Virus record (IMG/VR): IMGVR_UViG_2778261035_000013
Location: 1-16,120 of that record
Length of the DNA: 16,120 nucleotides
Direction: 5' to 3' (one strand)
Origin: a virus
Lineage: Duplodnaviria; Heunggongvirae; Uroviricota; Caudoviricetes
Positions within the stretch are counted from its first letter, which is position 1. Each line of letters starts with the position of its first letter. This document shows, in pieces, positions 1 to 15,668 of the stretch. The notes under the pieces are model-generated. The model was not told the origin of the DNA, searched no databases, and saw nothing but the letters and a program-made list of their open reading frames with translations. Made by a program: the position numbers and the translations under genes.

Positions 1-1284
1 TTAATCAATCAAAAAATCCCACAAATCTCTTAAGGTATGGAAGTTTTGATTTCCACCGTTCATATATTCATCACACATTTTTTCAAGATCATCATCGTCT
101 ATTGACAGGATAAAACCTCTGCCATCATTTGCCGTGTCAAGACAACGCTGTCTGAATAATTTTTTATCCTCAATCTTCCTACAAACGAGAATACCTACAT
201 TTCCCCTATTCCTTGAGAACCTACCAGATAACTGATCTAACTCAGGATTTGCAATTTCTGACGTATAGTTTTTACACTCAACATAAATTCTAGGGCATGT
301 GTAATGTTGCGAAAGCCAATTAAAGAAACCATATTTGGCTTCATTATTATAAGTAATATCAATCCTCTTTCTACCATCATGAATTTTTTTCTGTTTCGTT
401 GGATAACATAATGAAGGATAGAATATTACAGAAAATATCTCTTCAATAAGATCTTCGTACTCCCCAGCTTGTTTTGTACCCGGCTTTAATGATTTTAATT
501 TATTGAGAATTGGATATATGTCAATTTTGTCACTGATTTCCTCTAACTCATTGAAAACTTCATGTGATAATGGTGCAGATGGATTTTTTTCTTTATGCTG
601 TTTATAATCTTCAAATACATCAGGCCGTTGTAAAGTTTGATTAATTACAGAAGGCTTATCACTTCCATATTTATTTTTTAAACTTTTTTTAGTTACTCGC
701 CTCGTGCCATTTTTTAATACCTCTACCAAGGAAGAGTTATTCCTTAAATGTTCATCTTGCATTTCTGGCAATAAATAATGATTATAAAACTCGTCATATT
801 GCAAACATAACCTATGTCTAACCAATAGCTTAGGAACTAATATTACTTTTCCATAAGTTGTCATTGGTAATGATACAAATTCACTATACCACTTTCCTCC
901 ATGTGGATCCCATATTGGCCCAGAATCAATATTGGGCGTTAATTTTACGCCATAATATTCACATATTTCTTGTGTGTATTTTATAAATGGACCTCTTAAA
1001 ATATTGCTTACTGCATCAGAAATCATGTCAGTCCCGATTCCTGGTATTAGTAGCGCTGTATCTTCAAGATCTTTTAACAATCCAGTTGTGACGGCCTTAC
1101 TTTGAGTTAGTGCATTCCAAACCGAATGAGCGGAGCCAGCGCCAAAACCATGTCCACGAGATTTTTCGGACGAATACCCTAAATGAAATTCATTCCTCTC
1201 ATTCAACGAGGCTAACAATTTTTGTGCTTCAGCATTTTTGCCAACCTTAATTAGTTTTAAAACCTTCTCAAAGAAACTTTGCAA
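1..1284 (-). CDS. hypothetical cargo protein (427 aa in ORF track) with C-terminal PD-(D/E)xK-like nuclease signature; candidate defence gene
   Basis: Long uninterrupted ORF whose stop codon is at 1..3. Motif ...HDGRKRIDITY...(26 aa)...RIYVECKNY fits the D...(D/E)xK pattern of restriction-endonuclease-fold nucleases. AT-rich (about one third GC over the first 60 nt). Only in-frame start before the first internal Met is TTG at 1284 with no obvious Shine-Dalgarno, so the 5' end is uncertain. Confidence 0.6.
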   Translation of the reverse strand: MQSFFEKVLKLIKVGKNAEAQKLLASLNERNEFHLGYSSEKSRGHGFGAGSAHSVWNALTQSKAVTTGLLKDLEDTALLIPGIGTDMISDAVSNILRGPFIKYTQEICEYYGVKLTPNIDSGPIWDPHGGKWYSEFVSLPMTTYGKVILVPKLLVRHRLCLQYDEFYNHYLLPEMQDEHLRNNSSLVEVLKNGTRRVTKKSLKNKYGSDKPSVINQTLQRPDVFEDYKQHKEKNPSAPLSHEVFNELEEISDKIDIYPILNKLKSLKPGTKQAGEYEDLIEEIFSVIFYPSLCYPTKQKKIHDGRKRIDITYNNEAKYGFFNWLSQHYTCPRIYVECKNYTSEIANPELDQLSGRFSRNRGNVGILVCRKIEDKKLFRQRCLDTANDGRGFILSIDDDDLEKMCDEYMNGGNQNFHTLRDLWDFLID

Positions 1285-2044
1285 GTGAGATGTAAGTTCT
1301 TGCCCCCAATTCGAATCTAAGGATTTAATAGCACCAGGGTCTAGAAAAACTGGTGTCAGTATCTAGTGGTATGTCAACGAAATCTAGATAAGCTTGAGAA
1401 CGATTAAGTTTGAAATATTCCGAAAAGCGCATAAAGACTCCTAAAAATCGAATGGTTTTTCAAAAAACATAACGCTATTAAAGAATCAACCAAAAATTGA
1501 TGAGATGGGGCACAGCTTAAGCAGAGAGATTCATGTTGAACGATTGAACTCATCATCTCAAGTAAAGATAAATATGGCAAGTACGTGGTTTGACGGTTGA
1601 GCAACCATTGATTGCTTCACCTATCAAAAAGTCGGATTAATATCAAGAAAGTTTAAAACACACCATCACTTAAAATCATTTAACGACGAAAATCGCACTA
1701 CACCGCACCCGCCTGCGGTTTTCATATCACTAAAATTTTTCAGTTGTGATTTTTTACAAACGATATCGCCAGCCCGCGCCCGCTCTGGGGATGCTCTGCG
1801 AGACAGGAACTGAAAAGAATGAAAAGAAATTCAGCTTTTTTCAGTTTTACTGTCCGTCATGTCTGTGGTCTGAATACGCAACACTATGATATTAAATGGA
1901 TAATTTATTTTAGGTGTGTGATTTTATGAAAATTTGTGAAACATGAAAAACATAACAACTTGAAAAATAATAATTTTATGTCCGTATAAACTGAAATCCT
2001 GTGTTCAGGTTTCGGGAACGGATCGGCCACTCCCGACGCATACT

Positions 2045-2317
2045 TTACCCATTTTTTTGCGCAGCCAGCAGCAACTTTAAAGCCTTTTCCCGCTCCTCGG
2101 GTGGAATGGCATCAATGAGCTCTTTAACCCTCCCCTGCCCGTTCAGCGCGCTTGGACTAACGGAATGGGAGAAAGCAACATTCATCACAAACGAGTGACC
2201 GCACTCCACATTAGAGCAATAGCAGTACACATCGTACAGTTGTGGGTGTTTCCTGTTTGTTTTACCTATCCGCGCTACTGCCTGACATGTGGGGCAGTAC
2301 ATTCTCATCATCTTCAT
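2045..2317 (-). CDS. ogr: Ogr/Delta-family zinc-finger late-gene transcription activator
   Basis: MYCPTCQ...(18 aa)...YCYCSNVECGHSF matches the CPxC...CxNVxCxxxF signature of P2 Ogr / P4 Delta. Several in-frame ATGs (2317, 2311, 2308, 2302), so the exact start is uncertain. Confidence 0.8.
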   Translation of the reverse strand: MKMMRMYCPTCQAVARIGKTNRKHPQLYDVYCYCSNVECGHSFVMNVAFSHSVSPSALNGQGRVKELIDAIPPEEREKALKLLLAAQKNG

Positions 2318-2385
2318 CGTTCTGTGCCCTATACTGTTGCCCGCCAGAGGAAGGGATTTGGAACCCTACCTCTTGTTCTGAACGC

Positions 2386-2574
2386 GTAACACTGGTAACA
2401 CGTGTAACATTATTGATTTAAAAGGATTTAATCTGTTACCAGTTAGCATAATCAAGAGGTAACGCGTGGTAACACACCATTTTTTGTTACCAGTGTTACC
2501 AGTCAGTATTTTTGACTGGTAACACTGAAGAACAGCATCAGTCGCGGGTGTTACCTCTGTTACCAGTGTTACCT
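2386..2574. repeat. iteron array (putative origin / cis replication region for the alpha primase-helicase)
   Basis: Eleven copies of the heptamer GGTAACA/TGTTACC in about 190 bp: forward at 2387, 2395, 2404, 2468, 2518; reverse at 2434, 2485, 2494, 2549, 2558, 2567; a near copy at 2458. Copies within clusters are spaced 8-9 bp. Lies between the alpha stop (2600) and the ogr start. Resembles the P4 type I iteron TGTTCACC. Confidence 0.65.
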
Positions 2575-2599
2575 CATAAAAATAAGACTCACGCGATAA

Positions 2600-5287
2600 T
2601 TACTCAGGTTCGGCGCTTCCCAGTACCTGTGTATTGAACTGGTACACACGTTTAAGCCCTATTTCTGGCAGGCGAATGCTGTTTTGCGTCCGGCCATCTT
2701 CACCGGGTTTCAGCCAGCCCGCGTCCACACACAACCTGGCCACCTTACGCGAGTCAAATCCCTTACAGATCTCCTTCCAGCCTGACGGGAGAACGTAGAA
2801 CGTCACAACCGGCTCCGTTACGTTGTCTCCTTTATCGACTTTTCTGAATCCCATCATTGAAACAGGCCGGTTCCTGTCGTCATTCCAGTCAGCAAACCGA
2901 CTGAACTGATTACGCGTCATGAAGTCCCGTACCTGTTCAAGTGCCGCTTTATCTTCCTGATTAGCTGTATGGCCACGGTCAGCCATCCATGCAGCCAGAC
3001 AACGTTGAGCGGCACGAAAGGCCTCTCCCTCCGGCCATCCTGTGATGCCCGCTTTTGTGGCCAGTTCCCCGGCCATCGCAACCAGAGCAAAACGGGTAAC
3101 AGCCCGGCCAACCTGATTCCCGGCATTTTCCGGCGTCAGCCTTCGGGTGTACTCTTTCAATAAGGCTTTCGCCTGGCTGGTCAGTTCCGGCAGTTCAGCG
3201 GTCAGGCAATGCAGCCAGTCGCGGAATGGTGCGCCATGATAATGCGCTACGTGCTGCTCAAGATGCTCAGCCAGGGTTTTCCCGCTACTGAAGCCATGAA
3301 GTTCTTCAAACACGCCATATTTGCCCGAATCGCTTGGGATCTGGATCATTCTGACCTCAACCCCGGCATACGTACGTTCCCCGGCGCTTGCGGCATGCTC
3401 TACCAGTGACAGTTCCCCGGTGGACAGAAACAACAGATTCCAGCGGTTGGTTTCCCTTACCGAACCATCTGTTCTTGCTCTGGCTTTGCCCTGCCCGTTA
3501 GCCAGCATATAAGCGATATTCCCCGCCTCCCTGCCGTCAACCTCCCGGATTTCATCGAGCATCAGCGTGGCATCATTGCGGCGGCTCGCCGTTCCTTCTA
3601 ATGCATTCCCCGTCGCCCGCCACGTATGCCAGAAATCTGTTCCACCACATACTGATGCAGCCACTTTCATCGTCGTGGTTTTACCGTCTGTTGATTCCCC
3701 TTTGAGGTGATAACCTCCACCGCCGATACCAACCAGTTTCAGAAGGGGGGCAGCAAATGCCAGACTCACCGCAAAGGCAAGACGGGCATTCTTTATGCAG
3801 TAACGGCCTATATTTTCACGCCAGTCCTCTGATGTGCCGCTGACACGAAAATCACGCCCCTGCACACTCGATGTTTGTAAGATGACTGACTGGGCTTCGC
3901 GCCCTATCACTTCATCCTGGAGAACGTAAACCCCGCCGTGCCAACCCGTTTTATTCACACAGGTTACTTTTCTGTCCGGTTTACACAGCGAGATATATTC
4001 CATCAGGAATGCTCTGGCCATACCGTTAATGTTGATGTAAGAAAGCCCGTTAACCAGCAGAACGCGGCGCAGTTCTTCCCCGCTGCCACCCAGCATCTCC
4101 ATCGGCATTGCCCATTTACGGCTGTTTCCGTTGGTATCTTCCCATTCCAGCAAACGCCCGTAATTACTTCCATCAGCATCACTGGTGATTGCCGTCACCC
4201 GCAACGGACTGCAAATTTTGATATTACGTATCTCTGTATCACCATCAGACTTATTAACCAGCTTGTCGTACCACAAATATTCTTTTGTCAGCCGGAACCC
4301 TTCTGGTAAACGGGTCTGCCCTTTGCCATGCAACGTCATTTCTTCACGAAAGGCATCTCTCGCCCGTTCTTTCCCCACTTCCTGCCGATAATCATCCCAG
4401 TCAGCCTTATGGCGTACCGGAGGGAGCGTTACCCAGCCATCCACCGCTTTGGCGGCTTTCTCTGCCTGAATACGCCCGGTGTTTTCTTTGCCGTCAGCCA
4501 GATCATTATCTCCTGCCACAATGATCCGGGTTTCCGGCCAGCGTTTTCGGATCTGCTCCGTCACCTTCAGTAAATTGGTGGCAGCGACAGCCGCCACGAT
4601 CCATCCTTCAGTCAGCAGACTGACGGTAAGCGCCGTGGCAAAACCCTCAGTGATAATCACCTGTTCAGGTGTTTCAGCGGGTATATCTGTCAGGGCAATG
4701 AATGCGCCAGACAGCTGGCTACCGGGCAGCAGACTTTTATCCCCGTCAGGATTGATAAGCTGGCCACCGGTAATATTCCCGGAAATATCCGTCAACGGCA
4801 GCAGTAATGAACCGGAGGAAAATGTTATTCCGGCCAGATTCAAAGGCTGTGACAGCAAGGGAAGTGAATACCCGTGTAAGCCCTTGTTTGTCAGATAGAC
4901 CGGCTCACCATTGCAGGACTGCTGTCTGAGTCGGGTATATCCCTCCGCGCCCGCTTCTTTTCCTGCTGCCTTTTTCCTGGCTGGCAAAGCGGGCTTCTCC
5001 TGTATTTCTGGTAATGCAAGCGCCTCAGATACCATCCCGGCGACTTCTTTTATCTTTCTCCCTGTCACCAGACGAACCAGGTCAAGACCATCGCCATGAC
5101 CGCACTGATTACAAAACCACGTCCCACGCCCCGCTTTATCGTCCAGCCGAAAGCGATCTTTTCCACCACAGGCAGGGCAAGCCCCATGATGTCCTGCGGA
5201 CGGTACTTTAATACCTAATGCTGACAGGATATAAGGCCAACGGCCAATTGCAGCCCCTGAAATTGTGGATACAGACGGTGTTTTCAC
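2600..5287 (-). CDS. P4 alpha-like bifunctional DNA primase-helicase (895 aa)
   Basis: N-terminal zinc ribbon CPACGGKDRFRLDDKAGRGTWFCNQCGHGDG, Toprim-like acidic motif IIVAGDNDLADG, Walker A P-loop GESTDGKTT in the C-terminal half. GTG start at 5287 overlaps the stop of the upstream ORF (GTGA). Confidence 0.9.
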   Translation of the reverse strand: MKTPSVSTISGAAIGRWPYILSALGIKVPSAGHHGACPACGGKDRFRLDDKAGRGTWFCNQCGHGDGLDLVRLVTGRKIKEVAGMVSEALALPEIQEKPALPARKKAAGKEAGAEGYTRLRQQSCNGEPVYLTNKGLHGYSLPLLSQPLNLAGITFSSGSLLLPLTDISGNITGGQLINPDGDKSLLPGSQLSGAFIALTDIPAETPEQVIITEGFATALTVSLLTEGWIVAAVAATNLLKVTEQIRKRWPETRIIVAGDNDLADGKENTGRIQAEKAAKAVDGWVTLPPVRHKADWDDYRQEVGKERARDAFREEMTLHGKGQTRLPEGFRLTKEYLWYDKLVNKSDGDTEIRNIKICSPLRVTAITSDADGSNYGRLLEWEDTNGNSRKWAMPMEMLGGSGEELRRVLLVNGLSYININGMARAFLMEYISLCKPDRKVTCVNKTGWHGGVYVLQDEVIGREAQSVILQTSSVQGRDFRVSGTSEDWRENIGRYCIKNARLAFAVSLAFAAPLLKLVGIGGGGYHLKGESTDGKTTTMKVAASVCGGTDFWHTWRATGNALEGTASRRNDATLMLDEIREVDGREAGNIAYMLANGQGKARARTDGSVRETNRWNLLFLSTGELSLVEHAASAGERTYAGVEVRMIQIPSDSGKYGVFEELHGFSSGKTLAEHLEQHVAHYHGAPFRDWLHCLTAELPELTSQAKALLKEYTRRLTPENAGNQVGRAVTRFALVAMAGELATKAGITGWPEGEAFRAAQRCLAAWMADRGHTANQEDKAALEQVRDFMTRNQFSRFADWNDDRNRPVSMMGFRKVDKGDNVTEPVVTFYVLPSGWKEICKGFDSRKVARLCVDAGWLKPGEDGRTQNSIRLPEIGLKRVYQFNTQVLGSAEPE

Positions 5288-5694
5288 AGCAGCACCTCCT
5301 GACCTTCCGGCTTCACAAATTCAAAACCTTCGGGTAGTTCGCCATCAGGTGCACCGAAAATAATATCCCGGTAAACCTCACGCATCTCTGTGACACCAAA
5401 AACTGACAGGCGAATATTTTCTGACATAAAGCCCGGTTTAAGCATCTTTTCCAGTTTCTCTGCGGCCAGTATGCAACCTGCATCAGCCCCAAATTCATTC
5501 ACCCACGGCATTTCAATATGGTAAATAATATTACTCACCACTTTTTCGTGGGTGAGTTCTATTCGTTCGCCATCTTCAATATAAACAGGTTCATTATGAA
5601 CACGCGCCATTAAGGAAATGAATGCATCAGCAATGTAATACCGTAAGACTGCTGTTCGTAAAGCATGCACCTTTAAATTTTGATTATTATTCAT
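5284..5694 (-). CDS. hypothetical protein (136 aa), alpha-operon member
   Basis: ORF with ATG start; start overlaps the stop of the upstream ORF by 8 nt and its stop overlaps the alpha start; backbone-like GC. Confidence 0.6.
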   Translation of the reverse strand: MNNNQNLKVHALRTAVLRYYIADAFISLMARVHNEPVYIEDGERIELTHEKVVSNIIYHIEMPWVNEFGADAGCILAAEKLEKMLKPGFMSENIRLSVFGVTEMREVYRDIIFGAPDGELPEGFEFVKPEGQEVLL

Positions 5695-5923
5695 CGCGCA
5701 TCACTCCCTTAATTGTGCTGGTTTCCTTAACAACGCCATCCAGTTGTTCGGCAATACAGGCCACTAAAGCCGCAGCGCCTTCCGCTGAAACAGTTCTCGC
5801 TCCATTCACTGTGGGAACGGACAGAACCTCTGCAAGAAATTCACTGGCCAGTGCCGCCCGTAACAGACGACTCTCACCCAGTTCACTCAATATGCAGCCT
5901 TGCTTAAAATTCATGGATTTCAT
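5687..5923 (-). CDS. hypothetical protein (78 aa), alpha-operon member
   Basis: ATG at 5923 overlaps the stop of the upstream ORF (ATGA); GGAGGTG Shine-Dalgarno 5 nt upstream. Confidence 0.5.
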   Translation of the reverse strand: MKSMNFKQGCILSELGESRLLRAALASEFLAEVLSVPTVNGARTVSAEGAAALVACIAEQLDGVVKETSTIKGVMRDE

Positions 5924-6123
5924 GCAACCACCTCCCCGGAGCTTTTCACAGGGATACGGGCAGCAAAGCTCAGGATAAATTCAGTGGCAAGTTTAAGGCG
6001 TGCAGCATGCTCGCAGTCTGCGATTACACGCACAGGACGTGGACGGGCATCACGGTCTGTACGGCGGACAGCCAGAAAGACAAAGGTAAATTCAGGGTGA
6101 GATAAAGCAGGGACTGTAGCCAT
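5920..6123 (-). CDS. hypothetical protein (67 aa), first gene of the alpha operon
   Basis: ATG at 6123 preceded by GAAGGAGG Shine-Dalgarno. The ORF-track ORF (5920..6609, 229 aa) extends upstream over the regulatory leader and terminator and is probably not translated there. Confidence 0.45.
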   Translation of the reverse strand: MATVPALSHPEFTFVFLAVRRTDRDARPRPVRVIADCEHAARLKLATEFILSFAARIPVKSSGEVVA

Positions 6124-6175
6124 AATGGCAACCTCCTTCAGATAGCGGGTAACGCTACCACCGGAGTTCCTACGC

Positions 6176-6342
6176 TCATGGGTGGTAGCCCAGACGGGGG
6201 TAGGAATACCGGCTCTGAAGGATACCGGCCAGCCCGAAAGCTGCCCCGCCTGGACTACCATAATACTGATGATGTGGCGTAAAAAATAAAAAAATACAAT
6301 CAGCCACCACACCATAAATTTTAGGTGAGTCAAAGCTGCGAC
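6176..6342 (-). ncRNA. candidate CI/C4-like immunity antisense RNA (boundaries approximate)
   Basis: Region between the intrinsic terminator and the operon RBS that contains the inverted (seqB-like) motif copy at 6199..6224; no coding potential with RBS seen. By analogy with P4 CI RNA and P1/P7 C4 RNA. Ends not determinable from sequence. Confidence 0.3.
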
Positions 6343-6367
6343 ACAAAAAAACACGCCTGGCGCGTGT
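6343..6367 (-). terminator. rho-independent terminator
   Basis: On the minus strand: ACACGC / GCCAG loop / GCGTGT followed by TTTTTTT (plus-strand A-run at 6345..6351). Confidence 0.6.
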
Positions 6368-6563
6368 AGTATCGCCTTCAGATAACACGGGTTCCTACGC
6401 CCGGCTGCCGATTTTGCGGCAACCTTTAAACTATATCCCGTGCATTCCTGGTGAGGCAAGAAATTTATAACCGAAAACTGATCATTGCCTGGATTAATTA
6501 ACGCTGGCATGCTTAAGCCTCTGCTTAAAAATAGTTCTTCATTTTTTCCTGATGCTGTAAACG

Positions 6564-6585
6564 AGACCCGCCTCTGAGCGGGTCT
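6564..6585 (-). terminator. hairpin immediately 3' of the capsid gene (putative terminator)
   Basis: Perfect 8-bp stem AGACCCGC/GCGGGTCT with 6-nt loop, 13 nt after the capsid stop; the T-rich tract is on the plus-strand side only, so function as a minus-strand terminator is uncertain. Confidence 0.35.
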
Positions 6586-6598
6586 TTCTGTCGCTAAG

Positions 6599-7603
6599 TC
6601 AATCCGCAAACGTCAGAGCGCTCTCATCGACAGCCGCGTACAGTTCTGGTTCACCGAGTGCATAGCCTTCATTGCGCAGGTAGGAATGTACGTATTCACT
6701 GTTTTCATCATCAAACTCAGCACGAAACCAGCGTGTTATCGCCTGGGTGTATATATGCAGATTATCCAGCGTCGTTACTGCCAGACGCTTACCCGGCATA
6801 AACGGGGGAATAAACGCAAAGCGGCCAGCAACAGAACTTGTAGCCATCTGTGCAGCATTCACATCAGCCGGGCGGTCTGCGGCATTAAATAACTTCAGGC
6901 GTTGATGTGCTGCCAGCTCTGCCCCAACTAGTACAACCAGACGGGGATCTTCACGAAACTGCTCAGCAATAAGCTCAGTAATCAGATGGTTGGCCAGAGA
7001 ATCAATATTTTTCCAGGTGCCAGTCTCTCCCAGAGTGACAGGCTCAGAGATGATTTGCTTCCCGTTTCCGTAGGCTTTCGCCAGTGCATGCCAGCCAATA
7101 TTGACATCCTCGCCTTTTTTATTGATTTCCGGGTTTGTAGTATTTGCAATCGACACACCATTGAAACCGATCCGCAGCATATCCAGCGCATATGCCTGAG
7201 CAAAAAAGCTCTCAACCGTTTTCTCAAACTCATCCGGCACGCCGGTATGGTAAATATGAGACATATCGGAATAGCTGATCCGGGCGCAGGTATCCGTCTC
7301 TGTCAGAAAGAACTCCGTACCATTGATTGCTATTTTTTTGTGGAAACGGCCACCATCCGCACGTCCGGTATGCAGTTCACTGGCACCAATATTGACGGCA
7401 TTACCTGACACGGCGTTAACATCACGTAGCGTGATATTTTTAATAAGCCAACCGGATTCCAGAATTGAGGTACGCAGTATATTTTCAGTGGGTTCGCTTA
7501 ATGCAAAGCGTCTGTTTGATTCCTCCTGATAGTTAGTGCCAGTAACGAATTTATTATGATAACGACGTGCTGCGTCCGGCCTTTCAGTTTTGAAGGCATA
7601 CAT
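6599..7603 (-). CDS. P2 gpN-like major capsid protein (334 aa; HK97 fold inferred)
   Basis: Recognisable similarity to P2 gpN as recalled from memory: N-terminal RFALSEPTENILRTSILESGWLIKNITLRDV vs KFTVEPSVTQTLMNTMQESSDFLTRINIVPV; GFNGV; NIGW vs AVGW; EDPRLVVLVGAELAA vs EDPDLVVIVGRQLLA; LDNLHIY vs LENLSIY. ATG start with GGTGA RBS. Confidence 0.75.
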   Translation of the reverse strand: MYAFKTERPDAARRYHNKFVTGTNYQEESNRRFALSEPTENILRTSILESGWLIKNITLRDVNAVSGNAVNIGASELHTGRADGGRFHKKIAINGTEFFLTETDTCARISYSDMSHIYHTGVPDEFEKTVESFFAQAYALDMLRIGFNGVSIANTTNPEINKKGEDVNIGWHALAKAYGNGKQIISEPVTLGETGTWKNIDSLANHLITELIAEQFREDPRLVVLVGAELAAHQRLKLFNAADRPADVNAAQMATSSVAGRFAFIPPFMPGKRLAVTTLDNLHIYTQAITRWFRAEFDDENSEYVHSYLRNEGYALGEPELYAAVDESALTFAD

Positions 7604-7625
7604 AGTTTTTCACCTTTTTTAGTAT

Positions 7626-8498
7626 TTAAGAAAAGATTTTATTTTTGTACTCAGTAACCCGATTGTATTTCATTACATGCTCAACATAATCCCGGTCACT
7701 TACGACTGAACGTAATACATAATTATCTGCTCGATAGTACTCCCTGTAAGCCATGACTCTTGCCATTCCACCGTTATTTAATACATAACGATCAGTTGGA
7801 ACGCTACAACGGCTAATAATTTCATTCACAGAATCAGACAAAGATTTGAGTGCATCTGTAATAAATTTAATATCACGAACAACGTCACCGTCATTAAACA
7901 CAGAAATAAAATCAGCAGGGATCTGGCCGGATTGAGGAAATATGCTCAGTAAACGCTTCTCAACTCCCTTACCAATGTAGTTAACTTCATCGGCCAGTAC
8001 GCCCGGTAAAAGCTTGATTGTGCTCAGTCGGTTATGTTGCTCATTCAGCCGGGAAACAGCCAGATGGTAACACCGTTCAGCATCCGCTCGTTCAGCATGC
8101 CCCGTTTTATTCGTTTTGGCTTCAGCAATGCTACTGACGCCGTTTTTTGAGAATGTGCTTTTCCATGCAACTTCCGCATTTGTCACTTCACGCTGCCGGA
8201 AAGATAACTCTTCCTCTTCCTGACGACACAACTGGGCATACCGGCTTAGGAGTAGGTTGATCTCATTCGCCACAGCTTCCGTATCAGGTACTGTTAATCC
8301 CGTAAGTGAATACAGCTTTTCACCTTTAGCGCGCAGCTTATTTAATGAAAATATTTCAATAATTCGCACAATACATGCAGTGTCGCTATGAGTTTCTTTA
8401 AACGGACTTACTTTATAGTTTCCTAACACGGAAACATATTCATTCTTAATTGGAAGGGATATGTATTGACTCCCCGCCGGTTGTAGACGGTAATTCAT
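7626..8498 (-). CDS. hypothetical AT-rich protein (290 aa) immediately upstream of the capsid gene
   Basis: ATG with GAGGAG Shine-Dalgarno; 22-bp gap to the capsid gene; central region rich in charged/helical sequence (LLLSRYAQLCRQEEEELSFRQREV...); lower GC than flanking backbone. Confidence 0.6.
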   Translation of the reverse strand: MNYRLQPAGSQYISLPIKNEYVSVLGNYKVSPFKETHSDTACIVRIIEIFSLNKLRAKGEKLYSLTGLTVPDTEAVANEINLLLSRYAQLCRQEEEELSFRQREVTNAEVAWKSTFSKNGVSSIAEAKTNKTGHAERADAERCYHLAVSRLNEQHNRLSTIKLLPGVLADEVNYIGKGVEKRLLSIFPQSGQIPADFISVFNDGDVVRDIKFITDALKSLSDSVNEIISRCSVPTDRYVLNNGGMARVMAYREYYRADNYVLRSVVSDRDYVEHVMKYNRVTEYKNKIFS

Positions 8499-8534
8499 AT
8501 AAACTCCTCATAAATTCTTCTAATACTAATGTTT

Positions 8535-8735
8535 TTACTCTGAAGAATGACTATCACGCCAAGCATAGTAGTCACCAGCACGCCATCGGGACATACGACC
8601 TAACTTGATTGGTTTAGGAAAACGTCCCAGAGAAATCAGTTTATAAATCCATTTATCAGTAAACAGACAATCAGATGTAATGAATTTCATATCAATGAGC
8701 GAGTCAGCAGAAGGACGATTATCAGTAAACCCCAT
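8535..8735 (-). CDS. alpA: AlpA-family phage transcriptional regulator / excisionase-like (66 aa)
   Basis: Motif LGRFPKPIKLGRMSRWRAGDYYAW matches the AlpA FPKPxKLG...W signature. ATG at 8735 preceded by AGAGAGGAA; the ORF-track start at 8759 is a TTG extension. Confidence 0.75.
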   Translation of the reverse strand: MGFTDNRPSADSLIDMKFITSDCLFTDKWIYKLISLGRFPKPIKLGRMSRWRAGDYYAWRDSHSSE

Positions 8736-8800
8736 AATGAGTTCCTCTCTATGTATCAATCTATATCAACGAAGAGGATTAAAACATCGTTCAAAAACAT

Positions 8801-8835
8801 AAAAAAGGCGAGTAAGAAAAATTTCCTTACTCACC
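8801..8835 (-). terminator. rho-independent terminator after the int-proximal cargo gene
   Basis: Stem 8807..8816 / 8826..8835 (GGCGAGTAAG vs GGTGAGTAAG, one mismatch) with 9-nt loop, followed on the minus strand by TTTTTT (plus A-run 8801..8806). Confidence 0.5.
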
Positions 8836-8842
8836 AAAATTG

Positions 8843-9631
8843 TTAATTTTTTGTAAATGATGGTTTCTTGAATATAGATGATATTAGTTTGCTAATAATT
8901 GGGTGTGATAGCGGAGGCTCTTTTTTATCAGGCCAAAATTCCTCAGCCCGACTAAAGATAAGGTCAGCAAGGGCTGCTGCATTTTCCTTTCGGTATGCCA
9001 TGTCCTCTTTATAAAGATATAATGCTACACTTAGAATCTCATTTCTCTTGGTAGCATGTCTTTCTTGCTGTGCAATTGATAACGATTTATATTTATCATT
9101 AGAAACATCACCATTTAATATCAGATGCAATTTCTTTACATCTTCCCGCTCCAGGTACGCATCTCCCTCATATCCAAACCCATCATCATTTTTCCAGTCA
9201 ATTTGAATATATTTGACCATTTCAGAATAGGTGGTACCAGTAGGAGACAACAATGATGGGTACTCCGGGAACTGCCCCTCATAAAAAACGAAATCACTTT
9301 TAACTTTTGGTGGCATTTGGAAATAGCCTTTTGTACTCGCCAGCACTAGTTTTTTATCTTTTTTAACTTCATTAATCTTAATCAAACTAAACTCAGATAT
9401 ATAACTAAAACCATCTTTATCTTTTTTCAAAGAGTTTATATTCTGAATAAAAGAGTCCACATCTCTTACTTTATGCTTTGAAAAAGACCATCGCCCACAC
9501 ATTCTTAGCGACAATTGAATGTCTTTTTCATCCGCAATATAAATAACATCTTGCTCATCGCAGCCCAATATTTTAGCGGCCTCACTAATACTATAATGAG
9601 TTCTATGAAGCTTGAGAGTATTATTTACCAT
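8843..9631 (-). CDS. hypothetical AT-rich cargo protein (262 aa) between int and alpA
   Basis: ATG start 3 bp after the integrase stop; N-terminal helix-turn-helix-like stretch YSISEAAKILGCDEQDVIY; followed by a terminator; AT-rich. Confidence 0.6.
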   Translation of the reverse strand: MVNNTLKLHRTHYSISEAAKILGCDEQDVIYIADEKDIQLSLRMCGRWSFSKHKVRDVDSFIQNINSLKKDKDGFSYISEFSLIKINEVKKDKKLVLASTKGYFQMPPKVKSDFVFYEGQFPEYPSLLSPTGTTYSEMVKYIQIDWKNDDGFGYEGDAYLEREDVKKLHLILNGDVSNDKYKSLSIAQQERHATKRNEILSVALYLYKEDMAYRKENAAALADLIFSRAEEFWPDKKEPPLSHPIISKLISSIFKKPSFTKN

Positions 9632-9634
9632 TAC

Positions 9635-10816
9635 TCAAGACTCCGTTCCACCAATAAAATCACTGTACCATTGCATCATTTCCCGACGCCCATCAAGATA
9701 CTGAGCATGATTATATATCCCCCGAATAGCATTTTTATCCAAATGTGCAAGCTGGGTTTCAATCCATGCACTATTGAAGCCTTTTTCATGCAAAATAGTG
9801 CTCATTGTGTGTCTGAAACCATGGCCAGTAACTCGGCCAGCATATCCAATACGCTTAAAGACCTGATTAATACTGGCCTCACTCATGCACTTACTTGGAT
9901 CGTTGCGCCCTGGAAACATCAAAGGATAGTTTCCAGTCAGTTCTTTTAATGTTTCAAGATGGGCTAATGCTTGATTTGAAAGCGGCACAATATGAGCACG
10001 TCGCATTTTCATACGTTCTTTAGGAATCTCCCACACCGCATTATCAAAATCCACCTCACGCCACTCACCTGCTCTTAGTTCTCCTGTTCTTAGACCCGTC
10101 AGGATAAGTAAATGTGCCCCCAGCAATACAATTGGGCTTCCTGAATAAGCGTTAAGGGCAGTAAAGAACTCCGGCAGCTCGTTGGCTTTGAGGAATGGAT
10201 AGTGGACTGCTTCATGTCCTTGCATCGCACTGGCAAGATCCGGTGCAGGATTGTAGATTGCTCTACCCGTTACGATGGCATAGCGGAAAACTTCACCGCA
10301 TCGCTGACGGACTTTCTTCGCTTTCTCCATAGCGCCTCGTGCTTCTATCAACCTCAGTACTTCAAGAAGTTCTAGGGGCTGAATATCGGCTATAGGTTTG
10401 TGTCCAATATGCGGGAAAATGTCTTTCTCAAACGCCTCAATGATGTCTGAAGCATAGCCCTCAGACCATTTGGGAGATTTCATTTTGTGCCACTCTAACG
10501 CCACTTCTCTGAATGGGTTAAGTGTCTCGATCGCTGCGTTTAAAGCATGCTTCTTTGCTTTTTTCACTTCGCCAGGATCTTCACCTGCTGCGAGTAGTTT
10601 CTTTGCGTCTTCGCGTTTTTGTCTGGCATCTGCGAGGGTGACTGTTGGATAGACACCAAAGGACAAGCGCTTCTCTTTACCAGCAAAACGGTACTTCATA
10701 CGCCAGTAACGCGAGCCATTAGGTTCAACCTGAAGGTACAGGCCACCTCCATCAGATAGCTTATAGCTCTTCTCTTTTCCTTTAGCGGCTTCAACCTTGC
10801 GAGCATTCAGCATCAT
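9635..10816 (-). CDS. int: P4-family tyrosine integrase
   Basis: N-terminus KSYKLSDGGGLYLQVEPNGSRYWRMKYRFAGKEK typical of P4-type integrases; C-terminal catalytic region with ...HGFRHT... and ...LAHLD...YNHAQY... consistent with the R/H/R/Y tyrosine-recombinase motifs; adjacent to the tRNA fragment. Start placed at the ATG at 10816; the ORF-track start at 10885 is TTG. Confidence 0.9.
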   Translation of the reverse strand: MMLNARKVEAAKGKEKSYKLSDGGGLYLQVEPNGSRYWRMKYRFAGKEKRLSFGVYPTVTLADARQKREDAKKLLAAGEDPGEVKKAKKHALNAAIETLNPFREVALEWHKMKSPKWSEGYASDIIEAFEKDIFPHIGHKPIADIQPLELLEVLRLIEARGAMEKAKKVRQRCGEVFRYAIVTGRAIYNPAPDLASAMQGHEAVHYPFLKANELPEFFTALNAYSGSPIVLLGAHLLILTGLRTGELRAGEWREVDFDNAVWEIPKERMKMRRAHIVPLSNQALAHLETLKELTGNYPLMFPGRNDPSKCMSEASINQVFKRIGYAGRVTGHGFRHTMSTILHEKGFNSAWIETQLAHLDKNAIRGIYNHAQYLDGRREMMQWYSDFIGGTES

Positions 10817-10980
10817 TGGGGGCACATTTCCTAGACCGAACAGAACATGCCCCCGATTGTGCCCCCAATTGTATGTTGATTTCAAGAGATAGGGGTTGAC
10901 GTCAAATGACGAAGAATCGCGTAATATCTATGTTTTTAAAGGGCTTTGTTGATTTGAGATGACTTGGAAATACTAAGGGA

Positions 10981-11026
10981 TGGTGCCGATAATAGGAGTC
11001 GAACCTACGACCTTCGCATTACGAAT
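10981..11026 (-). other. 46-nt 3' fragment of tRNA-Thr(CGU) (thrW-like): att core / displaced tRNA 3' end, not an intact tRNA
   Basis: Minus strand reads ATTCGTAATGCGAAGGTCGTAGGTTCGACTCCTATTATCGGCACCA, matching a thrW-type tRNA from the anticodon loop to the CCA end; the match breaks at 11027, so the 5' half of the tRNA is absent. Confidence 0.7.
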
Positions 11027-11356
11027 TATAAGAATCCGATTCTAATTCAAAGCATTACCCCATCAACACTGCGCTCACACGTCCCACCACATCAAAACAT
11101 GTAAAGCCTTGCAAGCCATTGTGAGGCCTTATGTGTCTCAGTTTTGTCCCATCTTGTATTACGACTCGCATAGCTAATGAAGATAAACGTGACGACAAAC
11201 GGCGAAGCAGTCTTCTTTTCTTTCGCTGCTTCCCCACACCCAGCATGCATACCTTTCCGTCATAACTGAAGTGAATGTCTGTTATGAGCGAGGAGCGGAC
11301 CTTGAATGAAGCACAAACATCCTATAGCTCCTATTATCAAAATGCGTGAGCAAAAA

Positions 11357-12172
11357 TTAATTGATATTTTGGGATATTTCTCTCAAGTATGGTTCAACCT
11401 CTGGGCGTTGCATATGATGCTTCATTGAGTCAAGAAAGGTTATGGGGGTTTGCATTACATCTACTTTAGATTTATTTTTCCTAATGAGAGTCATTCCTTT
11501 GCAAGTTTCTAAATATTCCTTAACTAAAGCTTTCTTTCGATTTCTATGCAAATCGCCTTTAAAAGCTAGAATATGAAAAATTGCGGCACCAATTACAATC
11601 TGTTTCACCGCGCATTCGGATGATTCGAATTCGCCCCATGAAATTCGACCAAAGAAAGGATTCGCATATCCAGAAGGATGCGCTTTGAGGTTATGGCCAT
11701 ATTTTAGCATTTCCGATGGTGTCAATTTTAATGGTTTAAACAACCCAGCCGAAATTGCAAAGTCTGAAAAGTCAGAACTCAACCCCAAAATAACATCTTT
11801 GTATTTATCAAAAAAAGACAATTTCTTCTCACTAGCCCTAGATGAATTAAATGCAACTTTAAGTAGCCAGCGAGAAAGCAAGCTATAATTATAATCGATA
11901 TTAACTTTTTCTTTTAAAAAACACTCTGTAAAGAAACCAGAGCGCTCTAGCATATTTTTGACATAACCATCTAAATTACATAGAACTACGTTATTACAAT
12001 GAAAACAAACATCTTTTATTTTAGCCTCACCACTTATCATTTTTTTTGATTTTTCTTGCCATCCTATAGTTTTCCCAGATGCTGTACTATATTGATATTC
12101 ATAGATGAAAGACGGGAGTATATGTTCTCTAGTCATTTTCCCTTCCTGACCACAATATATGCAAGTGCTCAT
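11357..12172 (-). CDS. hypothetical AT-rich protein (271 aa) with N-terminal HNH-like nuclease motif
   Basis: CIYCGQEGKMTREHILPSF...VCFHCNNVVLC gives a CxxC...EH...CxxC-N HNH-like arrangement in the first ~65 aa; ATG with AAGGA RBS; AT-rich. Confidence 0.6.
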   Translation of the reverse strand: MSTCIYCGQEGKMTREHILPSFIYEYQYSTASGKTIGWQEKSKKMISGEAKIKDVCFHCNNVVLCNLDGYVKNMLERSGFFTECFLKEKVNIDYNYSLLSRWLLKVAFNSSRASEKKLSFFDKYKDVILGLSSDFSDFAISAGLFKPLKLTPSEMLKYGHNLKAHPSGYANPFFGRISWGEFESSECAVKQIVIGAAIFHILAFKGDLHRNRKKALVKEYLETCKGMTLIRKNKSKVDVMQTPITFLDSMKHHMQRPEVEPYLREISQNIN

Positions 12173-12497
12173 CTTATTCCTTTATCAAAGATATAATAAC
12201 TAAAATTCGATTATAACAATTAAAAACTCGCGTTAGTAGTTGTTAACTTATCAATAAACAGTTTCTCAATTATTAGTCAGCATCATCAGAAGAAACCCCT
12301 CTCCAAAGATAATTTTATAAAATAATATAAATGTCCACGCCTGGCACGGAGTAGACTGGCTATCTAAGCTAAAGGTCTGCTGTGAGCGAAAAGCTGACAG
12401 GACGTAGTTTCTTGTTTAAAGAATCAGTTAAGGCATTAAAAATAGATGTAACCAGAGCCAAGGTATAATATCCTGGCTCTATTTACACTTGCGTACA

Positions 12498-13202
12498 TTA
12501 TTCTTGCTTTTTGGGAGGTTTTGGGTGTTTCTCAGGTAATTTTTCTGCAATCTTAAATACCCCCTCATCTTTTAGTATTGTTCGCATTACAAAATTTTCT
12601 ATAATTACCAAAAGTGATTTAAATTCAGCTTCGTTCGGTGACCATGCCCTGTGTGCTGCTGAGTTGCCAGCTTCGGTTACAATTTTAAGTTGGCTCCTTT
12701 CTGTTTCCCCAATAAAACCTTCCTCTTTAAGAATGTCAACCTTCTGGCCTAATGTATGTCCTGGGTGAATATTTAAAACTTCGACTGTTCTGTCAAAAAT
12801 AGTTCTGAGCCCAATTGCCGCTAAAATGAGTGATTTATTTTGAAATGCAATATACATTTCGTTCATTATCACATAAAGCTGATAATCTTTGCTTAATATC
12901 TCGCCAAACCAAGTGGGTCTAATCTCTTCTTGCTCTTGCGTAGGATATGTTGATATATGATAGTTATATACTATACAATCATAGCCTGACTCATCTCTTT
13001 CATAGTCGTAATCTTCACTATGACGGGATTTAATATATGTAAATATTCCGTCGCATCCCATGCACTCTAATAATTTGTATTCACTTTCAGCCCAAAAATA
13101 GTTGTCCCCATCCCCCTCGCTCCATTCTCTTTTTTTATAACCTATTGTGTGACAATTTTTTTCACCTTTACAGTATGGACAAGGCGCTTTGATTTTTTCC
13201 AT
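12498..13202 (-). CDS. hypothetical AT-rich protein (234 aa) with N-terminal zinc ribbon
   Basis: CPYCKGEKNCH...CMGCDG Cys cluster; C-terminal region with a GNSAAH motif loosely reminiscent of DUF4145/HEPN-like domains (unverified); ATG start without a clear Shine-Dalgarno. Confidence 0.5.
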   Translation of the reverse strand: MEKIKAPCPYCKGEKNCHTIGYKKREWSEGDGDNYFWAESEYKLLECMGCDGIFTYIKSRHSEDYDYERDESGYDCIVYNYHISTYPTQEQEEIRPTWFGEILSKDYQLYVIMNEMYIAFQNKSLILAAIGLRTIFDRTVEVLNIHPGHTLGQKVDILKEEGFIGETERSQLKIVTEAGNSAAHRAWSPNEAEFKSLLVIIENFVMRTILKDEGVFKIAEKLPEKHPKPPKKQE

Positions 13203-13572
13203 AATAATTATTCTGCCAATTAAATTAATATTGATATGACATATATGCCAATGATTTATAAACGATAAATTGACTATTCACTTTACTACAATAATTTTCA
13301 TATGAGTAGTGATAAGCCTCTCATTTTCTTTGTCGTAGATTGATCTGCTCTGTATCGATTAACACCGAATGGGGGAGTAGCTTCCGCTTTTGGCACATAG
13401 TAGTCCTAGAGACAGTGACGTAAAGTCATGGAGGATCGGTGGGAGGAGGTGCTAATCCTTTCATACAAAAAATATGTAAAATCAATAACGGCTGTAAATC
13501 ATTCAATACTCGCACTATCGGAAGTTCACCAGCCAGCCGCAGCACGTTCTTGCATACGACGAGCCTGCGGTT

Positions 13573-14127
13573 TCATTTATCTCCGACCGGAAACATCTTA
13601 TACAGTGTCGATACACCAACATCATAGATGATCGCCACCTTTTGGCGAGGAACGCCTGATGCAATTAATCGCCCGGCCTGCGCCCATTGTTCTGGTGTAA
13701 GTTTGGGACGACGTCCACCAATTCGTCCCTGCGCGCGAGCAGCTTCCAGTCCAGCTTTTGTTCGTTCAACAATCAGTTCTCGTTCCATTTCAGCCAAGGC
13801 ACCCATCACATGAAAGAAAAAACGCCCCATCGGTGTGCTGGTATCAATAGCATCCGTCAGGCTGCGAAAATTAACGCCACGTTCGCGCAACTCCTCAACT
13901 AGAATGACCAAATGCCGCATACTACGCCCCAGCCGATCCAGCTTCCAGACAACCAGTGTGTCACCTGCCGATAATGTCCTGAGCAGTTTTTTCAGTCCGG
14001 GCCTTTCGGACTTCGTACCGCTTATCTTGTCTTCAAAAATCAGCTCGCATCCTGCACAGTTCAGCGCATTACGTTGTAGATCTGTGTTCTGGTCATTTGT
14101 TGACACACGTACATAGCCAATAAGCAT
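13573..14127 (-). CDS. pin: Pin/Gin/Hin-family serine DNA invertase
   Basis: MLIGYVRVSTNDQNTDLQ...LVVWKLDRLGRSM...FRSLTD...MGRFFFHVMGALAEMERELI matches e14 Pin / Mu Gin (catalytic Ser in VRVST). Start placed at the ATG at 14127; the ORF-track start at 14163 is an upstream extension. Confidence 0.9.
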   Translation of the reverse strand: MLIGYVRVSTNDQNTDLQRNALNCAGCELIFEDKISGTKSERPGLKKLLRTLSAGDTLVVWKLDRLGRSMRHLVILVEELRERGVNFRSLTDAIDTSTPMGRFFFHVMGALAEMERELIVERTKAGLEAARAQGRIGGRRPKLTPEQWAQAGRLIASGVPRQKVAIIYDVGVSTLYKMFPVGDK

Positions 14128-14181
14128 GGTAGATCTCCCTGACAAAAGCAGGAATGATGCCATTTGCTCGTTATTTCTGCA

Positions 14182-14207
14182 TTTTCATAAACGTTGGTTT
14201 GAGAGAA
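14182..14207. other. left crossover site (pix/gix/hix-like) of the invertible segment
   Basis: TTTTCATAAACG TT GGTTTGAGAGAA has the 12+2+12 quasi-palindromic layout of Hin-family sites (compare hix TTATCAAAAACC AA GGTTTTTGATAA). Its inner half is an inverted repeat of the window end: the first 13 nt, GGTTTGAGAGAAG, match the reverse complement of 16108..16120 at 12 of 13. Confidence 0.55.
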
Positions 14208-14648
14208 GCGGCAAAACGAAATGTGGGCAACGGGGAAAACCAAATCCCTGATATGTCTTTCTGGACGGTTACTGGTGGCAATGGAAATTTTGTGATTCGT
14301 CAACCTGACGGGCTAATCATTCAGATGGTTACTGTAAGTATAAGCGGTCCAGTGGCGATGAATGGAATGACTGATAATGCTTATGCCATTACAGGTTCTA
14401 ATAAGTCTTATATTGCCACAGCCACATTGCCCTTTGTATTTCCTAATAAGGTGCTGGGCGTTATCCCTCTGGTATCAACAACAGCTTATGGTGGTGTATC
14501 CAGTAATATTACAGGTTCATACGCGACGGCGGTTTGTTCTTTTGCCGCTGTCAGGGGGAATAATACGATTGTGTTCAAAGTCGACAAACCACTGAATGCA
14601 GCCTTTCCTTCAGATACCAGCGTCTCAGCGTTAATCATTGGACGGTAA
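14196..14648 (+). CDS. tail fibre variable C-terminal cassette (currently promoterless/silent orientation)
   Basis: Reading frame begins inside the left crossover site (GLREAAKRNVGNGEN...); the upstream in-frame codons of the ORF-track ORF (from 14154) lie in the pin promoter region; followed directly by a tail-fibre assembly gene. Confidence 0.6.
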   Translation, partial: GLREAAKRNVGNGENQIPDMSFWTVTGGNGNFVIRQPDGLIIQMVTVSISGPVAMNGMTDNAYAITGSNKSYIATATLPFVFPNKVLGVIPLVSTTAYGGVSSNITGSYATAVCSFAAVRGNNTIVFKVDKPLNAAFPSDTSVSALIIGR

Positions 14649-14650
14649 TA

Positions 14651-15094
14651 ATGAACTCAGTATTCTTTTCACCCGGAAGTAAAAGTTTTTATCTGCAAGA
14701 ATTGTTTCCAGAATATGAGGATGCGGGAACGCTTCCTGATGATGTTATTGAAATTACCAGAGAAACATATGAGCAATTTCTTGGTCTGCATCCAGAAGGG
14801 AAAGAAATTGGCGCTGACAGTTCAGGACGGCCAATATGGATTAATTCCCCACCCCCTTCAAAAGAGGATGAGGTGTTGACGGCTGAAATGAAAAAAATAT
14901 CTTTGGTTTCAGAAGTCAATACCTACATCAATACCCATCAGTGGCCTGGCAAAGCTGCTATTGGTCGTCTGAAAGGCGAGGAACTGGCGCAATATAATTC
15001 GTGGCTGGATTATCTGGACGCACTGGAACTGGTCGATACTTCCTGTGCGCCAGATATTGAATGGCCTACGCCTCCGGCAGTTCAGGCCAGATGA
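14651..15094 (+). CDS. tail fibre assembly protein (147 aa) of the silent cassette
   Basis: ATG 2 nt after the upstream stop; C-terminal half AAIGRLKGEELAQYNSWLDYLDALELVDTSCAPDIEWPTPP parallels the C-terminus of the opposite assembly protein (TRLNAVLDYIDAVTATNTSTAPDVIWPELP). Confidence 0.7.
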   Translation: MNSVFFSPGSKSFYLQELFPEYEDAGTLPDDVIEITRETYEQFLGLHPEGKEIGADSSGRPIWINSPPPSKEDEVLTAEMKKISLVSEVNTYINTHQWPGKAAIGRLKGEELAQYNSWLDYLDALELVDTSCAPDIEWPTPPAVQAR

Positions 15095-15668
15095 CATCCG
15101 GCGCTGTGCTGGTATTTGTTGCCGTCACCGCGTCAATGTAATCCAGCACAGCGTTAAGCCGGGTTGTTTCTGCCTGCATCAGCTTCCGTCCGGCCTGTAA
15201 TTTCAGCTGAATCAGACCGATGGAAGCCATTGCAGCATCAATCAGTGACTGACGCTGTGCTTCTGCCGCGTCTACTGCGGCGCTATGCTGTGCCTCAGTA
15301 TCGGTCACCCATTTCTCACCATCCCATTTATCGTATGGCGTTAATGGGGCAATAGTGGTTGTATTTTCGGGGTAATCACCCGGTGCTGTGATCTGTTTTG
15401 ATTCTCCCGTTTCGGTGTTATAGACGATTTCACCGCGATGGTCTGGCACATATTCCCATGAATTTAAATTCACAGAACGACAGATAGCATAACCTGCCTT
15501 ATGTATACCTGGTGCATCCAGACAGGAATATGCCGGGATACCAACACCAACGGCAAGATATTCACTTGAAGTGGAAATATATTCCCGAGTTTCACCATCA
15601 TAGTTATAAACGGTAATATCCCCTGCCTTTGTAGCAACAAGTCCACTATTTAATATTGCTTTATCCAT
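15066..15668 (-). CDS. tail fibre assembly protein (200 aa) of the expressed cassette
   Basis: ATG overlaps the stop of the upstream fibre ORF (TAATG); Tfa/U-like size and C-terminal motif; convergent 29-bp overlap with the other assembly gene. Confidence 0.75.
   Translation of the reverse strand: MDKAILNSGLVATKAGDITVYNYDGETREYISTSSEYLAVGVGIPAYSCLDAPGIHKAGYAICRSVNLNSWEYVPDHRGEIVYNTETGESKQITAPGDYPENTTTIAPLTPYDKWDGEKWVTDTEAQHSAAVDAAEAQRQSLIDAAMASIGLIQLKLQAGRKLMQAETTRLNAVLDYIDAVTATNTSTAPDVIWPELPEA

Follow-up and report, generated by a model that had tools for sequence, protein, structure and literature searches.

Among the late genes of Gram-negative phage satellites, those for capsid proteins are carried most frequently (PMC10111431), and they were found in 21 of the 29 reference phage-inducible chromosomal islands (PICIs), where they are called "capsid morphogenesis" components (PMC10111431; PMC10085698). 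The sole pair of such genes to have been deleted gave no phenotype (PMC6092414; PMC10111431). In phage P2, the maturation protease and the internal scaffold are both parts of gpO (residues 1–141 and 195–284, respectively), which is not needed for shell assembly once Sid, a protein of the satellite P4, is present (PMC7552001). In the island SaPIbov5, the capsid-protein homologue Ccm takes up the pentamer positions and thereby imposes a small T=4 shell; Ccm brings an N-terminal delta (scaffold) domain with it, and no other island protein is required (PMC8569155). The present analysis concerns an open reading frame (ORF) of 290 codons, designated ORF290, that immediately precedes a P2-family capsid gene in a satellite related to P4. 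Both genes are located in a 16,120-nucleotide stretch of DNA, positions 1–16,120 of the IMG/VR virus record IMGVR_UViG_2778261035_000013, which is referred to below as the window.

ORF290 and its capsid gene partner

ORF290 is encoded on the minus strand at positions 7626–8498 (ATG at 8498–8496, TAA at 7628–7626) and specifies a protein of 290 amino acids. A GAGGAG ribosome-binding site, read from the sequence, is located at 8504–8509 on the same strand, 5 nt 5′ of the ATG. The capsid gene (6599–7603, minus strand), which encodes a protein of 334 amino acids, starts 22 nt past the stop codon of ORF290 and has an AGGTGA ribosome-binding site at 7610–7615, likewise read from the sequence. An earlier note on this DNA had described the ORF, the strength of its GAGGAG box, the 22-bp spacing to a capsid gene on the same strand, a G+C content below that of the capsid gene and a charged helical central segment. 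All of these features were recovered here, with the clarification that the gene lies on the minus strand: the box at 8509–8504 is in place, the G+C content of ORF290 is 41.5% as compared with 48.1% for the capsid gene (36% and 45%, respectively, at third codon positions), and residues 77–161 are predicted to form a helical hairpin that includes the run CRQEEEELSFRQRE.

ORF290 is a genuine gene and not a chance ORF, because its homologues are numerous (89 by a word-indexed search and 53 cluster representatives by an exhaustive profile search), its ratio of nonsynonymous to synonymous substitution rates (dN/dS) is 0.157 relative to a 79%-identical copy from Citrobacter, and the module is present in many Escherichia coli genomes. 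The capsid gene, at 0.091, and the primase gene, at 0.041, have lower ratios; ORF290 evolves at two to three times the rate of the neighbouring genes and is nevertheless under purifying selection. Family members range from 276 to 332 amino acids in length, with a median of 288. Of 5426 complete E. coli genomes, 450 contain ORF290 and the capsid gene together with a DNA identity of at least 95%, so that elements carrying the pair are present in approximately 8% of these genomes, including ST131-type strains, and they are also found across the Enterobacterales. For 441 E. coli genomes, the match at 95% identity extends only to position 8452 of the window, approximately 15 codons into ORF290, and other sequence replaces the disordered N-terminal tail of the protein together with alpA, so that a recombination breakpoint falls within the 5′-terminal part of ORF290 (8453–8498).

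The capsid protein is a full-length homologue of the P2-family major capsid protein. It matches Pfam PF05125 with an E-value of 7.6e-67 over profile positions 16–325 of 327 and PHROG 70 with an E-value of 1.2e-85, and its score against NCBIfam TIGR01551 is 202 bits, which is under the cut-off of 219.65. It is 25% identical to P2 gpN and 49% identical to the capsid proteins of ESSI-2-like Peduoviridae phages.

Whether related elements carry ORF290 and the capsid gene together had been named beforehand as the test of a partnership between the two genes, and a member of the ORF290 family was found directly upstream of the capsid gene in every informative locus. The sample comprises about 40 informative loci, several of them near-identical, and extends to ORF290-family members with as little as 12% identity. 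When ORF290 homologues were taken as the starting point, the capsid gene was found alongside in 8 of 8 loci from species-representative genomes (Citrobacter, Enterobacter, Franconibacter and an assembly labelled Vagococcus) and in 21 of 21 informative IMG/VR loci. Even for the most distant members of the family (12–17% identity where computed), a PF05125 capsid gene follows immediately downstream (5/5); the contig of a sixth distant member was too short to judge and was left out of the count. The reverse search started from capsid homologues with 51–67% identity, from Salmonella (two types), Yersinia ruckeri, Pectobacterium and Providencia. In all five, the gene upstream encodes a protein of 278–332 amino acids that lacks a Pfam match, and all five proteins match the hidden Markov model of the ORF290 family with E-values from 5e-60 to 5e-21. 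The gap between the two genes varies from −4 to 123 bp across loci.

The pairwise divergences of ORF290 and of the capsid protein are correlated (Spearman coefficient of 0.92 over 78 pairs, which are not independent of one another), with ORF290 diverging much faster. The pair is retained on differing backbones, which carry Int_N or Arm-binding integrases, AlpA or HTH_3 regulators, and primases of the DUF927, DUF5906 or Toprim_2 types; it therefore behaves as a cassette. The G+C content of the ORF290-family gene is lower than that of its partner capsid gene in 12 of 12 pairs, and the low value is therefore no mark of a recent cargo insertion. In the sampled loci, a P2-type satellite capsid gene was never found alone, but was always locked to an undescribed helical protein.

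Predicted structure of ORF290 and searches for relatives

An AlphaFold2 model of ORF290, built on an alignment of 26 sequences, has a mean predicted local distance difference test (pLDDT) score of 87.5 and a predicted template modelling (pTM) score of 0.80, and is entirely alpha-helical. The helices of the N-terminal region (residues 20–66) and of the C-terminal region (residues 165–289) are confidently predicted and constitute the best-conserved part of the protein; in the model, they presumably pack into a compact core. A hairpin of two helices of approximately 40 residues each (77–120 and 124–161) is located in the middle of the chain, and residues 1–13 are disordered. Conservation peaks in the core, in the helix at residues 39–66 and in residues 232–255, among them Y254 and Y255, and R45, E48 and E79 are invariant. 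The variable parts are the tip of the hairpin (101–140), the loop at residues 176–203 and the N-terminal tail.

A clear match to a known, unrelated protein family was sought in Pfam, NCBIfam, PHROGs, PADLOC, the PDB and BFVD, and none was found. ORF290 has no match in Pfam or NCBIfam and none to any family of PADLOC-DB 2.0 at an E-value of 0.1 or below, and in PHROGs it gave only a weak coiled-coil match. A wide alignment of the family was made from 51 members, with identities to the window protein down to 14%, and these members were scanned with Pfam and PHROGs. The family-library scans together returned only scattered coiled-coil noise, for example phrog_6880 (E-value of 4.8e-4) and matches confined to single members, and a search of PDB sequences with the family profile returned coiled-coil proteins only. 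No matching fold was found when the model was compared with PDB and BFVD structures. An 886-residue protein from the profile search (P0253) is a repetitive coiled-coil false positive and was not taken as a family member.

The earlier note had reported no recognizable similarity to P2 gpO, and this is borne out at the profile level, where the hhalign probabilities for gpO are below 1% (0.06% and 0.75%). Neither ORF290 nor any of the 51 family members matches PF05929 (Phage_GPO_N), and hhalign probabilities were 1.4% for the ESSI-2 scaffold and 0.2–0.5% for P4 Sid and P4 Psu. A C-terminal motif common to ORF290 and the helper scaffolds, of the kind shared by CpmB and the 80alpha scaffold, was not seen. 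A relationship to P4 cII was considered on the basis of a blastp match with an E-value of 0.012, but this was judged to be noise, and the hhalign probability is below 2%. When three diverged family members were used as tblastn queries, nothing was found in 50,697 phage records, and the ORF290 family is restricted to satellites. No paper on this family, or on its pairing with a P2-type satellite capsid gene, was found among the open-access papers searched. ORF290 is the founding member of an undescribed all-alpha protein family.

Stand-alone gpO protease genes in related satellites

In satellites of Yersinia ruckeri, Pectobacterium and Providencia, a gene for a Phage_GPO_N protein of 169–177 amino acids is located directly after the capsid gene (positions 8011–8532, 3563–4072 and 8017–8550 of loci L019, L021 and L022, respectively). 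The proteins align to residues 6–183 of P2 gpO with 31–39% identity, and the scaffolding domain is absent. The satellite lineage of the window has no such gene. In the relatives, a capsid gene and a protease gene are retained with neither a gpO scaffolding domain nor Sid; therefore, something else must scaffold the shell. The ORF290 family is the sole conserved protein of unassigned function in the cassette, and the protease-only form of gpO constitutes the strongest indirect argument for a scaffolding or size-determining role of ORF290.

Proposed role of ORF290 and alternative explanations

The explanation favoured here, to which about an even chance is assigned, is that ORF290, a protein peculiar to satellites, takes part in assembly together with the satellite-encoded capsid protein, either as a scaffold (internal or Sid-like) or as a size determinant. 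The capsid-partner reading of the earlier note is favoured by the pairing and co-divergence of the two genes; the physical interaction and a scaffolding or size-determining role are inferred from gene context and fold type. In the mechanism proposed, an active helper, probably an ESSI-2-like member of the Peduoviridae, would bring about transcription of the alpA–ORF290–capsid unit. Capsid proteins of the P2 family lack a scaffold of their own, for which they ordinarily rely on the C-terminal domain of gpO; ORF290 would supply this function. As an internal or Sid-like size-determining scaffold, it could direct the assembly of shells that fit a genome of approximately 11 kb, and these shells would be completed with the portal, terminase and tail of the helper. 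The conserved helical core might then serve as the capsid-binding or oligomerization surface, and the variable hairpin as a spacer or lattice contact.

The fold type is consistent with such a role. ORF290 is an elongated alpha-helical protein encoded beside a capsid gene, as is general for the scaffold class, and its all-alpha fold with a long helical hairpin is a design also found in Sid, CpmB, phi29 gp7 and the C-terminal domain of gpO (PMC7552001). Several observations weigh on the other side. ORF290 has no sequence, profile or structural likeness to any of the known scaffolds or size determinants compared; the core of its model is compact, confident and globular, which is unusual for internal scaffolds; and it is mildly basic (isoelectric point of 8.5), unlike the acidic proteins gpO, Sid and the scaffold of ESSI-2. 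No TGT-N12-ACA box of the type recognized by Ogr/Delta was found upstream of alpA–ORF290, and late expression is a candidate timing only. In EcCICFT073, the only PICI of Gram-negative bacteria tested, deletion of the structural genes left transfer and interference unchanged (PMC6092414). Gene adjacency, moreover, is linkage and not mechanism. A bolder version of the proposal, that ORF290 founds a new class of scaffold or size determinant within a minimal cassette of two genes, or of three where relatives in Yersinia, Pectobacterium and Providencia add a gpO-type protease gene, by which the satellite builds a small shell of its own and steals the portal, terminase and tail, is put forward tentatively and is rather doubtful.

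ORF290 might also act against the helper, binding its gpN, gpO or portal to block or divert helper capsid assembly, with the diverged satellite capsid protein as a resistant substrate or co-poison. The restriction of the family to satellites, with no member in phage records, its fast nonsynonymous divergence relative to neighbouring genes, as in an arms race, and its tight linkage to a capsid homologue that shares only 47–49% identity with its counterpart in the probable type of helper are all compatible with interference, for which capsid homologues such as Ccm are known tools (PMC8569155). Such a factor is nonetheless considered unlikely: a dN/dS of 0.16 gives no sign of positive selection at the level of the whole gene, the conserved surface maps to the core and not to a variable recognition region, and the explanation overlaps heavily with a scaffold function. 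Quite unlikely, in turn, is a Psu-like external protein that decorates or stabilizes the finished capsid, possibly with a second role such as anti-termination. Although profile similarity to Psu or Sid is absent, Psu is likewise an all-helical, capsid-binding protein encoded by a satellite, the satellites studied here lack psu, the ORF290 model combines a globular domain with a long coiled-coil arm, and a region of RNA-based termination or immunity lies just downstream; a decoration protein, however, would leave unexplained why relatives that keep the protease domain of gpO lack its scaffolding domain.

A link to early regulation is suggested by the position of ORF290 as the second gene of a unit led by alpA, 36 nt after that gene, and by the failure to detect an Ogr-type late promoter upstream. 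ORF290 could then be a regulator of the early operon, for example a derepressor or activator of the helper co-transcribed with alpA, and its association with the capsid gene would be incidental. This is regarded as very unlikely, since searches of the protein revealed no domain for DNA binding or any other regulatory function, the capsid pairing persists where an HTH_3 regulator replaces alpA and other small genes intervene, and several relatives already carry a separate derepression gene of the P4 epsilon type. The alternative offered by the earlier note, that a defence or cargo gene was inserted between alpA and the capsid gene, is rejected as extremely improbable. In its favour are a G+C content below that of the neighbouring genes and the lack of an assigned function; the lower value is, however, seen in all 12 family pairs and does not mark a recent insertion, PADLOC returned no match, and ORF290 belongs to the fixed core of every locus, in contrast to the genuine cargo, which varies among them (a PDC-M36A candidate, Kiwa, a reverse transcriptase and DndB).

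Organization of the satellite and expression context

Positions 1–11026 of the window are 99.96% identical to an island adjoining the tRNA-Thr gene of E. coli TK3887, and the boundary of the satellite lies near 11026, within a partial copy of tRNA-Thr. ARAGORN identified no tRNA in the window, although the identity to the tRNA-Thr island ends inside this copy. On the minus strand, the order is the integrase gene, a 262-codon gene, a terminator, alpA, ORF290, the capsid gene, the isrK and C4 RNAs with an Icd-like ORF, two small ORFs, the primase gene, an Ogr/Delta zinc-finger gene and the cargo. The integrase, an alpha-type primase, alpA/vis, delta/ogr and CI-RNA immunity, which are traits of P4-like satellites, are all represented, and on this gene content the element is classified as a P4-related satellite of approximately 11 kb. 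The core set used by SatelliteFinder for such elements consists of int, alpha, alpA, epsilon, delta, sid and psu. Homologues of portal, terminase and head-completion genes were found in none of the 25 satellite loci, which have a capsid gene and, in some relatives, a gpO_N protease gene, but not the complete head module of the capsid-forming PICIs (cf-PICIs), made up of capsid, protease, portal, head–tail connectors, TerS and TerL. A tblastn search for sid and psu was negative in the window and in 24 related loci, and the neighbouring genes gave no Pfam match to them. In SE15/ST131-type strains, the module adjoins tRNA-Arg, with the integrase gene at the opposite end.

The integrase gene (9635–10885, minus strand) encodes a P4-type tyrosine integrase that is 43% identical to P4 Int. 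A strong terminator-like hairpin at 8807–8835 (minus strand), with a 13-bp stem followed by a T run, is kept in three related loci and separates the integrase and 262-codon genes from the alpA–ORF290–capsid unit. The first gene of this unit, 36 nt upstream of ORF290, encodes an alpA/vis-like helix-turn-helix (HTH) regulator (8535–8735, minus strand) with a weak match to PF05930 and 34% identity to P4 orf88; RefSeq labels the identical E. coli copy an HTH regulator. The primase-helicase gene (2600–5287, minus strand) encodes a zinc ribbon, a Toprim domain and a DUF927 domain, and the N-terminal 320 residues of the protein are 38% identical to P4 alpha.

An isrK-type RNA (6346–6423, minus strand; Rfam RF01394, 69.5 bits) and a C4/CI-type antisense RNA (6178–6265, minus strand; RF01695, 81.1 bits) follow shortly after the capsid gene and fall inside the ORF annotated as "Icd-like". 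Positions 6043–6438 of the window are 71% identical at the nucleotide level to P4 8285–8707, the immunity region, and the cI region is 58% identical to that of P4 at the protein level. A promoter scan identified a promoter-like site at 6459–6430, downstream of the capsid gene and in the position of P4 P_LE. By these similarities, the C4/isrK region looks like a P4-type RNA immunity system. Homology to P_LE and the CI RNA does not start until past the capsid gene; compared with P4, the ORF290–capsid pair is therefore an insertion between vis/orf88 and P_LE. The corresponding position of P4 is transcribed from the helper-activated late promoter P_LL.

A zinc-finger late-gene activator of the Ogr/Delta type is encoded at 2045–2317 (minus strand; PF04606, E-value of 5e-14) and is 50% identical to the Ogr-like regulator of ESSI-2. 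The identities of the capsid protein (49%) and of this regulator (50%) to their ESSI-2-type counterparts are the basis on which an ESSI-2-like Peduoviridae phage is regarded as the probable helper; no cos-site similarity to ESSI-2 or P2 was seen in the stretches compared. A perfect TGT-N12-ACA dyad is located at 2374–2391, 57 nt upstream of the Ogr/Delta-like gene, in a window in which approximately 4 such sites are expected by chance. As this is the type bound by the activator of P2 late promoters, it offers a lead, and only that, to helper-activated or auto-activated expression.

The 262-codon gene (8843–9631, minus strand) gave only a weak N-terminal HTH signal. It is highly variable among otherwise similar satellites (30–70% identity, with no tblastn match in locus L045) and may occupy a second variable or cargo position. 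The cargo gene at 1–1284 (minus strand), of which 427 codons lie within the window and whose ORF continues past the window end, matches PDC-M36A, a candidate defence family of PADLOC (E-value of 1e-43); at the same position, related satellites carry Kiwa, a reverse transcriptase, DndB or sce7725/7726. To the right of 11026, a different island encodes a 271-residue protein without a Pfam match, a DUF4145 protein and a Hin/Pin-type invertase (13573–14163), and it also contains invertible-looking cassettes of tail-fibre C-terminus and assembly genes (11027–16120). This arrangement points to two islands in tandem or to a prophage remnant next to the satellite.

Two database records call for comment. 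The assembly labelled Vagococcus sp. WN89Y (NZ_JBQPOM010000063.1) carries a satellite of the enterobacterial type whose integrase is 92% identical to that of the window, and either the label or the assembly is probably wrong. The record OX345456.1, entered as Salmonella "plasmid 118", was not accepted as a plasmid, being a 7-kb linear assembly fragment of the same satellite.

Comparison with known systems

The position of ORF290 is that of the scaffold genes of P2 and ESSI-2, each of which immediately precedes a P2-family capsid gene and shares its strand. As the earlier note had pointed out, ORF290 occupies a gpO-like slot and is of similar length (290 amino acids, as compared with 284 and 274 for gpO and the ESSI-2 scaffold), and the scaffolding part of the phage proteins is helical (PMC7552001). 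Unlike gpO, it has no protease domain, a basic isoelectric point and no profile similarity to these proteins (hhalign probabilities of 0.06–1.4%, the ESSI-2 scaffold included); it also occurs in no phage record, and some relatives encode the gpO protease as a separate gene after the capsid gene. With P4 Sid, an external size-determining scaffold, and its paralogue Psu, which act on a P2-family capsid protein, ORF290 shares its satellite origin, its entirely alpha-helical structure and the lack of a phage counterpart, and by analogy ORF290 and the capsid gene may fill the niche of Sid and Psu in P4 relatives that lack sid and psu. It differs from Sid in the absence of detectable homology, in its location after alpA, whereas Sid is encoded in the late operon sid–delta–psu, and in its pairing with a satellite-encoded capsid protein, as opposed to the helper gpN on which Sid acts.

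As in SaPIbov5 with Ccm, the satellite carries a diverged copy of a helper-type major capsid protein. Unlike Ccm, P2-family capsid proteins have no delta domain, and the satellite capsid gene described here is always accompanied by ORF290. The satellite PLE reportedly encodes TcaP, an alternative scaffold that gives T=4 capsids. CpmB of SaPI1, a small to medium-sized helical satellite protein to which ORF290 can be likened, alters shell curvature to T=4 (PMC7552001). Both CpmB and TcaP are regarded as unrelated to ORF290 in sequence and act on the helper capsid protein only; ORF290 was not compared directly with either, and searches of PDB chains gave generic coiled-coil matches only.

EcCICFT073 is similar in that a two-gene structural cassette, c1499 and c1500, is carried by an E. 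coli satellite with the integrase, alpA and primase genes. In that element, however, a lambda E-type capsid protein of 351 amino acids (c1499) is followed by a lambda D-type decoration protein of 111 amino acids (c1500); neither is homologous to ORF290, and their deletion was without phenotype (PMC6092414). An equation of ORF290 with the "head decoration protein" c1500 was rejected on these grounds, as c1500 has only 111 amino acids, follows a lambda-type capsid gene and belongs to a different element.

Satellite modules for capsid morphogenesis are already known, and it is the ORF290 protein family that is new. Should a scaffolding or size-determining role be borne out, ORF290 would represent a further independent means of redirecting capsid size besides Sid, CpmAB, TcaP and Ccm, with a fold that has no known relative, and the minimal cassette to which it belongs would be intermediate between P4, whose Sid remodels the helper protein, and the cf-PICIs, which carry a full head module.

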